A stretch of DNA of 63,810 nucleotides, filler included, from Reclinomonas americana ATCC 50394 (Eukaryota), in NCBI GenBank assembly GCA_048213135.1. It is 5 parts of 4 records of this genome, joined end to end, with 100 filler letters (N's around TTAATTAATTAA, not from the genome) between each part and the next. Parts side by side here need not be neighbours in the genome. Positions count along the whole stretch, not along the records: positions 1 to 31,549 come from PS015294.1; positions 31,650 to 49,066 come from PS015296.1; positions 49,167 to 54,208 come from PS015297.1; positions 54,309 to 60,558 come from PS015297.1; positions 60,659 to 63,810 come from PS015301.1. One strand, 5' to 3'. Within the stretch, counting starts at the first letter, position 1, and every line of letters starts with the position of its first letter. The position numbers were made by a program, and so were the translations under genes. This document shows, piece by piece, positions 10,267 to 60,659 of the stretch. The notes under the pieces were generated by a model. It had not been told where the DNA came from and did not search any database. It saw nothing but the letters and a program-made list of their open reading frames with translations.

Positions 10267-13200
10267 ATGCCACCAGCAGGCAGCCGATTCAAGTCGTTGC
10301 CAGTGGCTGAGCTGTTGCTCCTCTTGCTGTGCCTCGCCCTGTGCTGCGTCATCCCCGTCGTCACTTCGCACGAGCAGCAGCAGCAGGTTGGTTCTCCTGT
10401 GCCGAAGATATTGCATGACTGCCGCACACAATCTTCTCTCCCTGTTCTCACTCACCACTGGCAACTATCACCTCCCCCCCTCATCGTTGCAGGAAGTGGA
10501 ACACGTTGGTGCAATGCAAACGGCATTTCAGGCCAGTTGCGTGTGCGCGCGAGAGAGCGTGTGTTCTTTGGTGCTTCAACCGTTTCGGGTCGTCACCCCC
10601 ACTCACCGCCCTCTTCATGCAGCATCGGCGCCCGACGCGTTGCGAAGAATAGCCCCCCGCATGGCGACCAATCCACCCACGATTGGCACGCGCACGAGCA
10701 CCACCGTAGAATTAACCATCGACGCTGGCGACCCAACGCTGCTGATGTTGCTCAGCATGGCTCTCGATGTGCGTGACTCGTACACCGGCACCATCCTAAA
10801 CACCATCCCCGCCACATGTCCGTGGACTGCCACACCGTCGGTGTGCACAGTCACCGGGCTGTCACCAGGCACCGAGTACTCCTTCGAGGTGAGCAGTAGA
10901 TGTCCTCCTCGGCCGCTCACGATCGATTTCGTTCCTTTTTGGTGATGACCACGGGCACTCGCAGGCACGCTCGACTGCCCTTCTGTACACGGGTCCGTGG
11001 TCGGGGGCGACCCTCGCCACCACCATGCTCTCGCAAACGGTGACCATTGGCGCTGCGACACCAGATATCACCAGGTGCAGCATTGATTGCATGCATCACT
11101 GTCGTTGTCGTCGTCTTTGTGCACACCCACCGTCGCCTGACACGCACACTCCTTCTCCTGCAGTGTGGTGATCTCGTCTACCGCATCCGGCAACCCACCG
11201 GGCGGTGGCGCGTCGCCGCGGTTGCAGTTTGCCGTGAGCACCAACCTCTCCACCATTCTCACCACCTCCCCTTCGCCGTGTGTGTGGAGCAACACCTCCG
11301 CGGTGTGTCACTGCGATTGCTCCTGTCAATGTTCACCCTCGTGTGCGATTACTCACGAACGCATCTGTGTGTGTCGGTGGTTGGGGGACAGAAACTGTGC
11401 ACTGTGACGTCCTTGACGGCAGGCACCTCGTACACGCTAAAGGTACGGCTGGCGGTCGATGCTGGCGCCGGTGCCACTCTCTCCGAGTCGGCCTGGTCCA
11501 CGGGCTCTACCTCCTTCTACACCATGCTGTCGGAGACTGTGTCGGTGGTGTTTGCCGATGCTCAGAGTGGCAACGCGGCGACGCTGCGCCTCACACCAAG
11601 CGCCGTGGCCATCGGCTCATACGGCACGTCGCCGCGATTCGAGGTGCTTGACGCCAACTCGCCCTACACGGTCATGACATTCTCCGGCGCCTGCACGTGG
11701 TCCACCGTGAGCACGTCGGCCGTCGTCTGCACCATCACTGGCCTCACCGATGGCACCACGGTCAGCTATCAGGCGCGCGTAGTGACGAATTCCACCCTCG
11801 GCAAGGTCTCGTCCACCTCCACCGCTCGCTACAGTTGCGTACCTGGCCGCCGTGCTGCAACAACTGGTCGCCGTTGCACTCAGGTGAATGCGTCTGCGCC
11901 TGTGCACAGTCACATTTGCTACGGTGGCCACCACAGTTGTCACCATCAACCCCACCACGGTGGAATTGAGCTTGTTGCCGTCGGCCGGTGCACCAGGTGG
12001 CCACACCAACCCTCGATATGAGATTGAGGACGCGTCGTCACCTGGTGTGCTCCTGTCCACCTCACCGTCACCATGCACCTGGCCTGGCACAGCAACATCG
12101 TCGGCGTGCACCGTGACAGGCCTCAGTGCGGCCTCACCCTATCAGTTTGCGGTGTGTTCTTTTGCATCGCGAGTGTGGGATAGAGGGAATTGTTGGTGAA
12201 CGGGTGCGATTGACTGCAGGTACGAGTGGTGACGTCCACCAACAGTGGCGTGGGTCCACAAACTCTGGCCACCGCTCTCTACACGCTCTTGTCGCAGACT
12301 GTCACGGTGAACAGCTGGACGCCGACGGCTGTCAGGTGAGTTGTGCTCCATGGCCACTCCTGTCTCTACTCTCCATTTTTAACACTTGCCTGTTGCAGTG
12401 CCACCATTGACGTAGCTGCATCCGGTTCGCCGGCCATGGGCGCCACCACACCTCGATTCGAGTTTTTCCTGAGTTCGGCGCTCACCGGTGCTCCCCTGAC
12501 ACTGTCACCAACACCGTGCTCGTGGAGTAACGGATCCAGTGTTGTGTGTACCGTCACAAGTCTGACGGCAAACTCGTCGTACTCGCTAAGGTCAAGGTTG
12601 CGCACTGGCAGTGGCGGTACCCTCGCCGAAAGCTACAACAGCGCAGCTACTATTGCCTTCACGACGCTGCTTCCGGAGACGGTGACGGTATCTGTGGTGG
12701 ACGCACTGGCGGGTGGACAGGTGGTGCTGCAAGTGACACCGAGTGCGGTGGCGCAAGTCGGATATGGCACCACTCCGCGGTTCGAGTTTGTGGACATGGC
12801 GTCGCCGGGTGTGGTGCTCGGCACAACCGCCGCGTGCACATGGTCGACTGGCAGCACGGCGGCAGTGACGTGCACGGTGACGGGAATCGCCGGCAACAGT
12901 GCGTACACTTTTGGTGCTCGTGTGAAGACGGACAGCAACCTGGGTGCGCTGGCCTCGGCAGCCGTCAAGTACAGTTGCGTTGTGTGCCAAAGGTGTTGCT
13001 CTTCTCCTTCTTGCCGCTGACTGGTGTCATGCAGTTCATTTCGGAACGGTGTCGTCGAGCGTGTCGTCCACCACCGCGACCACGGCGGTGCTGTCGTTGA
13101 CTGCGTCGATCGCGGCACCTGGTGGACACACGAGTCCGCTGTTTGAGATCGACGACGCGACGAATCCTGGTGTGGCACTGAGCACGTCAGCAGCGTGTGT

Positions 13201-16200
13201 GTGGTCGACTGCGATGTCAGCGACGGCGTGCACGGTGACTGGACTGAGCAGCAACACGACGTACAATCTGCGGGTGAGTGTGCAGTGTCGTGGAGGGGAA
13301 GCTGGATGCATCAACTGAGTTGGTCGAGTGAACTTGCAGGCTCGTCTGGTGACATCGACGCAGTCGGCGTTTGGACCGCGTGCGACCATCAGTTCGTTGC
13401 TTACACAGCTTCCGGAGACGGTGACTGTGTCTGTGGTGGATGCACTGGCGGGTGGACAGGTGGTGCTGCAAGTGACACCGAGTGCGGTGGCACAAGTCGG
13501 ATATGGCACCACGCCGCGGTTCGAGTCTGTGGACATGGCGTCGCCTGGTGTGGTGCTCGGCACAACCGCCGCGTGCACATGGTCGACTGGCAGCACGGCG
13601 GCAGTGACGTGCACGGTGACGGGAATCGCCGGCAACAGTGCGTACACTTTTGGTGCTCGTGTGAAGACGGACAGCAACCTGGGTGCGCTGGTCTCGGCAG
13701 CCGTCAAGTACAGTTGCGTTGTGTGCCAACGGTGTTGCTCTTCTCCTTCTTGCCGCTGACTGGTGTCATGCAGTTCATTTCGGAACGGTGTCGTCGAGCG
13801 TGTCGTCCACCACCGCGACCACAGCGGTGCTGTCGCTGACTGCGTCGATCGCGGCACCTGGTGGACACACAAGTCCGTTGTTTGAGATCGACGACGCGAC
13901 GAATCCTGGTGTGGCGCTGAGCACGTCAGCAGCGTGTGTGTGGTCGACTGCGATGACGGCGACGGCATGTACGGTGACTGGACTGAGCAGCAACACGACG
14001 TACAATCTGCGGGTGAGTGTGCAGTGTCGTGGAGGGGAAGCTGGATGCATCAACTGAGTTGGTCGAGTGAACTTGCAGGCTCGTCTGGTGACATCGACGC
14101 AGTCGGCGTTTGGACCGCGTGCGACCATCAGTTCGTTACTCACACAGCTTCCGGAGACGGTGACGGTATCTGTGGTGGATGCACTGGTGGGTGGACAGGT
14201 GGTGCTGCAAGTGACACCGAGTGCGGTGGCACAAGTCGGATATGGCACCACGCCGCGGTTCGAGTTTGTGGACATGGCGTCGCCGGGTGTGGTGCTCGGC
14301 ACAACCGCCGCGTGCACATGGTCGACTGGCAGCACGGCGGCAGTGACGTGCACGGTGACGGGAATCGCCGGCAACAGTACGTACACTTTTGGTGCTCGTG
14401 TGAAGACGGACAGCAACCTGGGTACGCAGGCTTTGGCGGCAGCGCGGTACAGTTGCGTACTGTTCATTTCCTTTCCATGTACGATGGCACGTGACTGACG
14501 TGTGGTGTTTGTGTCTGCGTGAAGTTTCCTTTGTCTCGATTACCGTGTCCATTGGCTCGAGAACTCCGACCAGTGTCACTCTGTCTCTTACACCAAGTGT
14601 TGGAGCTCCGGGCGGCTATGCGGGTGCGGCCTTTGAGGTCGTTGATGCAGCAGCACCGGGCGTGCCTCTGACGACGTCGCCGGCTTCGTGCGTTTGGCCG
14701 GCAACCGCGGTCGCCTCAACATGCACAGTCACGGGTCTCAGCGCAGCCACCGGCATCACATTCTCGGTACCGATAGTCGCCCTGTGTCCTCCATTCTCAT
14801 CTCCGTGCTTCTGAATCGTGTCACCATCCTTGCATAGGTCCGCTTGCGCACTACCACCATGTCGGGGTTGTCGCCATCCGTGTCGTCCGCCGCGACGGGA
14901 ACTTTGTTGGTGGAAACAGTCAGCATCCAGAGCGTTACCGTTGTCTCCACATCGAGGTATGCACCAAATACTCACTCATCGTGTGCAGTAAGAGTGTCAA
15001 TGCAGCTCACGTGGTGCTCTTCATCAGTGTTGAGGTGACAGTGGTCGCCTCTGCTGGGCCGAGCACAGGAATGGGACCACCACAATTTTGTGCGTGTGTT
15101 TTGCCTCTTTGCGCACTGCGATCAAGATCTCTCACGCATCTACACAGTGTTCTGGGTCGGCTCTACGCAGCAGACACTGTTGCCAACTCCGTGCTTGTGG
15201 GCGGATGCTAATCCGACAACGTGTATTGTTGTTGGCCTCACTGGCGGTGTCACGTACGCTCTCGCTGCACAGCTGTTCACCGTGAGCCCGTTTGCGTCAG
15301 TTGTGTATCAATATCCGCCCTCGATTTCAACTTGCCCATGCAGTCGTCTCATTGCTGTGTGCTGCAGGTAACTTCGTCGACTGTCAACGCCACACCGTTC
15401 CTTACCGAGACGGTCACAACGCAACTTGTCGATGCGCTGCAACCAGATCGGGTGTGTCATGGACTCGCGACAATGGTCACTCACCTACCGCGCTGCTCAC
15501 CATGTGACCCTTGATCAGGTGGTCGTGCAAGTGACTCCAAGCAGCGCCGCGCAGCTGTTTTACAACACGCCGAATTTCCAGTTGTACGAGTCGTCTGACT
15601 TGGTCAATCCGCTGACGTTGGTGTCTCCTTGCGCGTGGTCCACTGCCAGCGCCGCTCCAGTTTTCTGCACAGTGAGTGGTATGTCTGTGGGGATCCATGC
15701 GGTTGCTGCTCGCGCCAAGACAGCCGATACGTACGGAACGACATCTGCGGCCTCGCCTGCACGATACGGTAGGCCATCCGTTGTGTGCGCGTAGTAGTGA
15801 TGGCGTGCGTGACTAAGCTTTGCCATGTCGACCGCCGCTGCAGTGCATTTCCAAGTGGTCACAAGCACTGTTGTGAGCACCACCACCAGCACCATCTCAC
15901 TGACAGTGAGCGCCAGCGCAGTGCCGCCGGTGGCACATGTTGTGCCACTCTTCGAGATCGAGGACAGTAGTACGCCTGGAGTGACCGCCAGCACGCTATT
16001 CCCATGTATGTGGGCCCTTGCTGGCTCTCCGACTCCCTGCACCGTTGTTGGTCTGAGTAACAGTCGCGTCATCCAGCTGCGAGTTTCGTGATGCATTCCC
16101 CCGTCGTTTGGTGTACTCTTGTCTCGCGTCACTCACTCCCAAGCGCGCAGGTGCGCCTGGTCACGTCCACGTCGGCTGCGTTTGGCCCATGGACTACGGC

Positions 16201-60513: not shown

Positions 60514-60659
60514 GTATGTTTGTTTCTCTTTTCGCGGTTGTGGTCTTGCGTGTGTTTGNNNNNNNNNNNNNNNNNNNNNNNNNNNNNNNNNNNNNNNNNN
60601 NNTTAATTAATTAANNNNNNNNNNNNNNNNNNNNNNNNNNNNNNNNNNNNNNNNNNNNT

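Follow-up and report, generated by a model that had tools for sequence, protein, structure and literature searches.

A second, GUU-type class of 5' splice sites and its association with the last exon base in a stretch of the Reclinomonas americana genome

U1 small nuclear RNA (snRNA) can pair through its 5' end with 5' splice sites in more than one register. Both shifted and bulge registers are treated as established in human cells in the excerpts of PMC4856993 and PMC11162779 considered here: the shifted (+1) register was shown genetically by Roca and Krainer (2009), as cited in both papers, and the bulge registers were described by Roca et al. (2012) and by Tan et al. (2016; PMC4856993). The same excerpt of PMC11162779 estimates the share of all non-canonical registers together at ~1.5% of human 5' splice sites. 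A tunicate paper raises the shifted register as no more than a possibility. Shifted U1 pairing is currently regarded as an uncommon way of rescuing unusual human splice sites. Here, a stretch of 63,810 nucleotides (nt) from Reclinomonas americana ATCC 50394 (GCA_048213135.1), referred to below as the window and numbered along its whole length, was analyzed for its 5' splice sites (donors). About a quarter of these donors carry an extra T directly after the GT, and the presence of this T is associated with the identity of the last exon base. The known shifted-register mechanism apparently serves here as an everyday mode, with a stereotyped donor class of its own that paralogous introns exchange for the canonical one. 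A full-text search of a limited set of papers, the founding register papers not among them, turned up no genome described as having GUU-type donors as a major class.

Two donor types were defined by their intronic bases: S (shifted) donors match GTT[GAT][ACG]GT and U (unshifted) donors match GT[GAT][ACG]GT. Position -1 denotes the last exon base and H any base other than G. Donors were called with an exon-chaining program of our own that combines codon log-odds, GT..AG ends, an acceptor matrix and an intron penalty. It was run 16 times with a donor score that covered intron bases +1 to +9 only, gave the two classes the same motif bonus, or was absent. Because this score is blind to the exon side, the -1 base is left free for testing. 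Donors used in at least 60% of the 16 runs were kept. Three antisense artefacts within the FN3 gene (11130, 14145 and 13406, minus strand) and three calls at odds with module paralogy (56221, 50893 and 50717, plus strand) were dropped; 13 donors fixed by paralogy or homology, 53806 among them, were added, followed by three more found while 53806 was being checked. The final set comprises 91 donors, and the intron calls draw on the reading frames, homology and paralogy of the window itself. The first gene models, built from GT..AG and codon scores only, were too noisy, and a naive model mis-called introns until both donor classes were allowed.

S donors make up 24 of the 91 called donors, and 24 of the 53 donors with a strong core. 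Their -1 base is A in 14 cases, T in 4, G in 4 and C in 2, compared with G in 21, T in 6 and A in 2 of the 29 U donors; the 38 other or weak unshifted donors have G in 19, C in 7, T in 6 and A in 6. Scored as G against non-G at -1, the S and U classes differ significantly (Fisher p = 7.8e-5, odds ratio 0.076), the combinations of -1 base and register being G/U 21, H/S 20, H/U 8 and G/S 4. The difference persists among program-only calls (G at -1 in 3/20 S and 19/26 U donors, p = 1.1e-4) and under a flat GT..AG splice model at three settings (p = 0.004, 0.03 and 0.01). A 739-bp tandem duplication within the FN3-like gene (12600-14440, 92.6% identical, both introns included) makes the donor pairs 12974/13713 and 13274/14013 non-independent observations, but with one donor per duplicate cluster the association is retained (p = 3.6e-4). 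By phase, it is clearest in phase 1 (p = 0.009), with p = 0.07 in phase 0 and p = 0.24 in phase 2, both of which contain too few S donors; phased and deduplicated S donors lean weakly to phase 1 (12/20). The link that the initial annotation had proposed between donor register and the -1 base is real, and it also holds between paralogous introns of the same position and phase.

The composition of the window clarifies what this contrast consists of. G precedes 21.1% of all GT dinucleotides; before GTT, G is found in 16.5% and A in 20.7%. Against this background, U donors are enriched in G at -1 (p = 5e-9), compared with 56 of 279 uncalled matches to the U motif, and S donors are enriched in A (p = 6e-5); A also precedes 25 of all 58 matches to GTT[GT][AC]GT (p = 2.6e-5). 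The four G-ending S donors correspond to the background level. The class contrast is therefore a G enrichment of U donors combined with an A preference of S donors, and not a depletion of G in S donors. The earlier statement that shifted donors mostly follow a base other than G stands for 20 of the 24 S donors called here, including its GG exceptions at 53806, 56534 and 56658, but it does not amount to avoidance of G. Its counterpart, that most unshifted donors follow G, agrees with the U class as a whole and with the non-G examples at 15282, 17822 and 55604. In position-by-position counts, taken over 21 S and 27 U donors, CA ends the exon at 7/21 S donors and CAG at 1/27 U donors, and C at -2 of S donors (9/21) is in modest excess only.

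Paralogous introns provide internal controls. All 10 paralogues of the phase-1 intron at the end of the TIG modules are concordant with the association: the seven with G at -1 are unshifted and the three with A or T are shifted. The unshifted copies, all placed by paralogy and, like all donors below unless stated otherwise, on the plus strand, are the U donors GTT G|GTGCGT (49770-49775), GTC G|GTGCGT (51441-51446) and GTT G|GTGAGT (59433-59438), and the donors GCA G|GTCTGT of a second subtype (50869-50874), GCA G|GTGTGT (53220-53225), AAT G|GTCTGT (56212-56217) and GCA G|GTATGT (60514-60519). The shifted copies are GTC A|GTTTCGT (50328-50334; module hidden Markov model and paralogy, the intron entering an N gap), GTC A|GTTGAGT (51963-51969; paralogy and 13/16 runs) and GTG T|GTTGCGT (52669-52675; paralogy and 16/16 runs). 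All 19 donors cited by the initial annotation read exactly as it gave them. Of the two ends of its span, 10889 reads G|GTGAGC, and 60520 falls 6 nt into the intron that starts at the donor 60514.

The FN3-like modules show the same behavior at two positions. At the phase-1 position, four copies read TAC A|GTTGCGT (11834-11840, at a module end, called in 16/16 runs; 12974-12980, a recent duplicate of the next; 13713-13719; 14452-14458), each supported by the program and by paralogy, and one homologous copy reads TAC G|GTAGGC (15769-15774), so that the split codon encodes Ile in the former and Val in the latter. A|GTTGCGC at 16981 may be a fifth shifted copy. At the phase-0 position, five copies combine G with an unshifted donor: GAG|GTGAGC (10889-10894), GCG|GTGTGT (12152-12157; 16/16 runs and paralogy), CGG|GTGAGT (13274-13279; a U donor, 12/16 runs and paralogy), its duplicate CGG|GTGAGT (14013-14018, also U) and TCG|GTACCG (14767-14772; paralogy). 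One copy is shifted, CTG CGA|GTTTCGT (16083-16089; 14/16 runs); as its paralogues have CGG|GTGAGT, the A at -1 is a synonymous choice. The unshifted ACC|GTGAGC at 15282-15287, with C at -1 and no extra T, is an exception.

As far as sequence tells, the S sites are real donors that are cut at the GU. The clearest cases lie in a gene for a PMCA-type P-type Ca-ATPase. A spinach PMCA homologue aligned by tblastn matches 30151-30777 (residues 200-355), 30858-31205 (357-451) and 31291-31470 (453-519), so that precisely one split codon spans each of the S introns 30779-30855 and 31207-31288, with no loss of residues. Their donors, CTC|GTTGCGT (30779-30785) and CGA|GTTTCGT (31207-31213), are both phase 1, border high-scoring segment pairs that break at residues 355/357 and 451/453, respectively, and are supported by the alignment and by 16/16 runs. 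A cut one base later (G|UU) was considered and rejected, since with a normal acceptor it breaks the tblastn frame at both sites; the junction residues themselves (Q or R, N or S) do not decide the cut position. Module continuity across NHL, TIG and FN3 repeats likewise fixes the donors 53510, 53620, 53806, 56534, 56658, 50328, 51963 and 52669 and the four FN3 donors. The introns behind the two donor classes are alike: S and U introns have median lengths of 76.5 and 89 nt, CAG acceptors in 17/20 and 20/28 cases and T contents of 0.34 and 0.33, and they share branch-like motifs of the forms CTRAY and CT[GCA]AC.

The S motif is itself overrepresented and restricted to one spacer base. GTTGCGT occurs 37 times in the window on both strands, compared with 16.3 +/- 3.95 in 100 dinucleotide shuffles, none of which reaches 37; on the plus strand between 10889 and 60520 there are 50 matches to GTT[GAT][ACG]GT, 8 of them after G. 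Among words of the form GT-X-GCGT, only X = T is both enriched (2.4-fold) and used, with 15 called donors carrying T and none carrying A, C or G. GTGGCGT was rejected as a G-spacer donor class: 21 of its 28 matches are never used and the other seven are chosen in only 1-2 of 16 runs each. The S class is also the more stereotyped, with GTTGCGT at 14/21 S donors and GTGCGT at 11/27 U donors.

We consider it somewhat probable that S donors, a major class here, pair with U1 in the shifted (+1) register already described; the part played by U1 is inferred from the donor sequences. The usual class is G|GU[G/A][C/A]GU, and the second class, with its extra U, is H|GUU[G/U][C/A]GU and mostly A|GUUGCGU, both preceding ordinary, short GT-AG introns. 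In the second class, the pairing with U1 would be displaced one base downstream. G+1 would take the U1 cytosine (C9) normally paired to the last exon base, U+2 would be mismatched opposite the next cytosine, and U+3 and the GCGU block would form the pairs made by positions +2 to +6 of the usual class, with the extra T opposite A7. The last exon base would then lie opposite the U1 uridine that normally faces -2, which would favor A over G, while cleavage would still occur at the GU. GG|GUU sites would more likely start canonically, with the extra U bulged out. Both intermediates, H|GUGCGU and also G|GUUGCGU, are present but less frequent, so a change at -1 and a one-base T insertion or deletion could occur in succession with splicing retained.

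Pairing was scored against the canonical U1 5' end printed in the available part of PMC4856993, which may not be that of the source organism. Under this assumption, the mean number of pairs formed by S donors is 4.29 canonically, 6.81 after a one-base slide and 6.62 with U+3 bulged; for U donors, the corresponding values are 7.93, 4.89 and 5.78. In RNAduplex predictions for S sites without G-1, G+1, where paired, pairs with C9. The preference for A at -1 of S donors, together with the lack of G-1 enrichment, favors the slide over a simple bulge. A slide would also account for which bases are favored: with C9 taken by G+1, the -1 base would face U10 and the -2 base G11, so that A and then C would be preferred.

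The closest known counterpart is the human shifted register. There too, the GU is kept at the cut and U1 is proposed to pair one base downstream, with G+1 substituting for G-1. In the excerpt of PMC4856993, a shifted-register test oligonucleotide (Table 2) has an exon end CA before the GU, like the CA|GUU sites here, and in that of PMC11162779, human shifted sites are said to resemble sites with a one-base insertion between +2 and +5, a look shared by the sites here. The differences are of scale and of evidence: in place of a ~1.5% share for all non-canonical registers combined, the window has 24/91 donors with a stereotyped GUUGCGU that alternates between paralogues, known so far from sequence alone.

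The exon-end pattern also differs from familiar dependencies within a single donor class. Exon-end G and intron positions of canonical 5' splice sites compensate for one another in a 'seesaw' manner. Such classical compensation would give more G-1 where the intron match is poor, but the S class has no G-1 enrichment. Co-variation of the exon-end base with part of the intron, as seen here, is also the subject of the abstract of PMC8283771.

Several observations weigh against a sliding U1 helix. The pair counts of slide and bulge for S donors are inseparable, and most GUUGCGU sites are predicted to pair very weakly in every register (+0.5 to -3 kcal/mol with canonical U1). The slide is imperfect: S+4 is G in 16, T in 5 and A in 0 cases, compared with G in 20, A in 6 and T in 1 at U+3, and G is common at U+7 (16/27) but not at S+8 (3/21). 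Pairing to U10 and G11 is not visibly selected in the main class, given A at -2 of only 5/27 U donors and the single CAG end; -1 of S donors is A-rich whereas -2 of U donors is T-rich. C is the majority base at U+4 (16/27) and S+5 (18/21), a mismatch to canonical U1, and G, T and, in S donors, A are rare there. Neither this C nor the G at U+7 fits pairing with the canonical U1 5' end, and the C hints that the U1 of the source organism, or another partner, differs. The NHL introns argue against any strict rule, as 53510 and 53620 are homologous to 56534 and 56658, respectively, and keep the S register with A at -1 in the former pair and G in the latter. Finally, the 91 donors come from a single 64-kb pseudomolecule, two gene families built of repeat modules contribute many of them, and 16 are manual additions made in awareness of the hypothesis.

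These points limit three claims of the initial annotation. That register switches between paralogous modules is upheld by the TIG and FN3 introns but not by the NHL pairs. That G+1 takes over the U1 pairing of a missing G-1 is favored by the -1 pattern and the T-only spacer, although the pair counts fit a bulge equally well and the slide is imperfect. That the exon-terminal base is thereby freed for coding appears doubtful, as S donors prefer A, the A of 16083 is synonymous and the NHL register stays constant.

The mismatches just described bear on an unlikely alternative, in which a divergent or second U1 (for example, with A in place of C8) would pair near-perfectly with GUUGCGU in its own register, so that the two classes would have two partners. 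The greater stereotypy of S donors, the preference for C at S+5 and U+4 despite the canonical mismatch and the weakness of S sites with canonical U1 in any register would all fit, and a position-8 variant predicts the same A-1 and C-2 preferences as a slide. No snRNA gene was found in the window with Rfam models, however, and few known RNA sequences are as conserved as the U1 5' end; GC-rich genomes with canonical U1 are, moreover, said to favor GTGCGT. The corresponding two-code donor system would have roughly a quarter of donors, A|GUUGCGU, served by a dedicated partner, either a second U1 or a U1 with a diverged 5' end (for example, at position 8 and at positions 5/6, which face the preferred G and C). 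The donor classes would have evolved together with the snRNA repertoire, and whether an exon ends in G or A would tell which partner reads the donor; we regard this, too, as unlikely.

A bulged-U register, with G+1 and U+2 paired canonically, one U bulged and the GCGU block following one step later, would make the -1 pattern a side effect, and is rather improbable as an account of the whole class. A +3 (or +2) bulge is experimentally supported in human according to the legend of Figure 1C in PMC4856993, and an extra intronic base at +2/+3 is accommodated there as it would be here. The pair counts are about as high as those of the slide overall and exceed them at the four S donors with G-1 (7.75 against 6.75), and RNAduplex sets G+1 on C8 at 56534. 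A bulge is accordingly plausible for 53806, 56534 and 56658. It keeps the G-1:C9 pair, however, so that G-1 would be expected at least at the level of U donors, yet it is at background and A is preferred. G-1 is absent from 20 of the 24 S donors and retained only at these three sites and the doubtful 59931. Nor need a bulged base be T, yet only T is seen.

Readings that place the pattern outside U1 are quite improbable. It could arise at a later step, through U5 loop 1 and the exon end, U6 with +4 to +7, or Prp8, or through descent and coding constraint in two repeat-gene families. According to the abstract of PMC8283771, U1 by itself does not account for the dependencies of the exon-end G. 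FN3-like and TIG/NHL modules contribute many of the donors, the register is kept within module subtypes with no recent switch seen, and S donors lean to phase 1. The association nevertheless persists once duplicates are removed and is also found in phase 1 alone, and non-G S donors occur on several contigs in unrelated genes (S7e, the ATPase, 1021, 27249, 41292, 44311, 45307 and 58726). Against coding constraint, the synonymous CGA/CGG pair 16083/13274 follows the pattern.

An artefact, whether homopolymer errors (T read as TT), misplaced boundaries, an introner with a GTTGCGT end or a diverged minor-spliceosome class, is highly improbable and largely refuted: although the assembly is fragmentary (21 N runs, four linkers) and S and U cores differ only in T-run length, random T-run errors would neither track the preceding base nor yield 37 GTTGCGT words against 16 expected, homology fixes the boundaries of 30779 and 31207, and the introns are ordinary in blastn comparison, length, acceptor and T content, with no RTATCCTT-type donor class. 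An introner-like mobile family was rejected, as all-against-all blastn of 83 introns found similarity only among recent duplicates (12974/13713, 13274/14013, 49770/51441) and between TG/CT microsatellites. U12-type introns are characterized by an RTATCCTT donor and a TCCTTAAC-like branch box near the acceptor. They resemble the present case in having a second, more stereotyped donor motif beside the main one, but the S motif, GTT[GT][CA]GT, is unrelated to RTATCCTT, and acceptors, lengths and branch-like motifs are those of U introns; a U12-type class was rejected.

If the shifted register is indeed routine for at least a quarter of donors, this would be natural, evolution-scale evidence of two stable registers of the 5' splice-site helix, with an exon-end preference that changes from G to A. 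Natural test cases for the uncoupling of U1, U6 and the cleavage site would then number in the hundreds or thousands, among them paralogous introns whose sole difference is register, and gene finders with a single donor matrix would get many introns of this lineage wrong. Should the genome carry a divergent or second U1, interest would rise further.

The remaining S donors are distributed along the window. In the TIG- and NHL-repeat genes (49-60.5 kb), TTA|GTTGAGT (53510-53516, phase 0) is placed by NHL-repeat continuity and CA|GTTACGT (53620-53626, phase 2) by a 47-nt exon shared with its paralogue. The G-ending donors are TCT GG|GTTTCGT (53806-53812, phase 2), with NHL-repeat continuity across the intron, and CCG CGG|GTTGCGT (56534-56540, phase 0) and GCA GG|GTTGCGT (56658-56664, phase 2), each called in 10/16 runs with NHL continuity; the U donor GAT|GTGAGT (53928-53933), non-G at -1, is also fixed by NHL continuity. 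Elsewhere, GCA|GTTGCGT (1021-1027, phase 2) and CGA|GTTGCGT (58726-58732, phase 1) were called in 16/16 runs, AAA|GTTGCGT (41292-41298, phase 2) in 12, ATT|GTTGCGT (23620-23626, phase 0) more weakly in 11, and GCT|GTTGCGT (44311-44317) and GCA|GTTGCGT (45307-45313), both phase 1, in 10. GTG|GTTTAGT (59931-59937; 10/16 runs) is a doubtful S call: it comes right after an N gap, and the sequence in which it lies is rich in repeats and probably intronic. On the minus strand, CAT|GTTGCGT (27243-27249, phase 0) was called in 16/16 runs. The sequence there, CAT|GTTGCGTGAGT (27243-27254, minus strand), holds a second, canonical-looking GTGAGT five bases downstream and out of frame, which may be a cryptic or alternative donor.

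The U donors called in 16/16 runs are CAG|GTGAGT (12336-12341), the non-G CAT|GTGCGT (17822-17827), TTG|GTGAGT (18178-18183 and 21820-21825), CTG|GTGCGT (19930-19935), GAG|GTACGT (25580-25585), ACG|GTAGGT (54392-54397), GAT|GTGCGT (57097-57102), CTG|GTAAGT (61853-61858) and GAG|GTTCGT (62909-62914). Those called in 12 runs are GTG|GTGGGT (43270-43275), GTT|GTACGT (49200-49205), GTG|GTGCGT in phase 2 inside a Cys/Trp codon (49493-49498), ATT|GTACGT (55311-55316), the non-G CCA|GTGCGT (55604-55609), GTG|GTACGT (55916-55921), ACG|GTGAGT (57470-57475) and, in a U-box gene on the minus strand, CGT|GTGGGT (33580-33585). Ten runs support GTG|GTGCGT in phase 2 (51791-51796), CCG|GTGCGT (58201-58206), GTG|GTGCGT (59038-59043) and the weaker GCA|GTGCGT (29673-29678). 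Beside the TIG-module donor at 56212, the program chose GTATCCTGG (56221-56229) in 10/16 runs, a sequence that looks like the beginning of a U12-type donor; paralogy favors 56212 instead, and no TCCTTAAC-like branch box was seen by eye before the acceptor at 56306.

The window is GC-rich (~58%) and eukaryotic. It contains four identical artificial joints, N44-TTAATTAATTAA-N44, each a six-frame stop linker (31550-31649, 49067-49166, 54209-54308 and 60559-60658); it is thus a pseudomolecule in which no fewer than five contigs are joined, and gene order or adjacency across the joints is not real. Long CT, ACGT and TG microsatellites lie in introns and at contig ends (53990-54208, 56767-56837, 59450-59640). 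An Rfam scan of the window gave nothing at gathering thresholds and, at E <= 1, only microsatellite look-alikes of microRNA families, which these repeats mark as noise.

In addition to the TIG/NHL genes, the window holds a long gene of FN3-like repeats (from 10661 to 19173 or beyond), the Ca-ATPase gene (~29-31.5 kb), a ribosomal protein S7e gene (~3.1-3.9 kb), the U-box gene and further genes. Pfam matches of raw open reading frames are limited to weak fn3 and TIG hits, and an FN3 exon had no match among longer proteins. In the S7e gene, the first intron begins with an S donor, ACC|GTTGAGT (3239-3245, phase 0; 16/16 runs, and by eye after the ATG), and another with the U donor CG|GTGGGT (3637-3642), on whose flanks the Pfam profile matches positions 46-107 and then 110-149; the profile had no match on the short first exons. 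Two further ATPase introns are unshifted: CAG|GTATGT (30571-30576) opens an insert relative to homologues in the alignment, and across the intron of GAG|GTCAGT (31032-31037) the conserved VAVPEGLPLAVT motif is restored. The best protein match of an ATPase exon (gene at 29900-31541) has 44% identity, the relatives being plant and fungal (Mucoromycota) PMCA-type pumps; the ESM Atlas returned generic P-type ATPase clusters only, and a metagenome contig scan with this exon gave 594 pattern matches, of which 0 were confirmed. A word search of proteins with the S7e open reading frame found no relative. Taken together, the ATPase identity of at most 44% and the S7e result suggest that the source organism is distant from well-sampled lineages.

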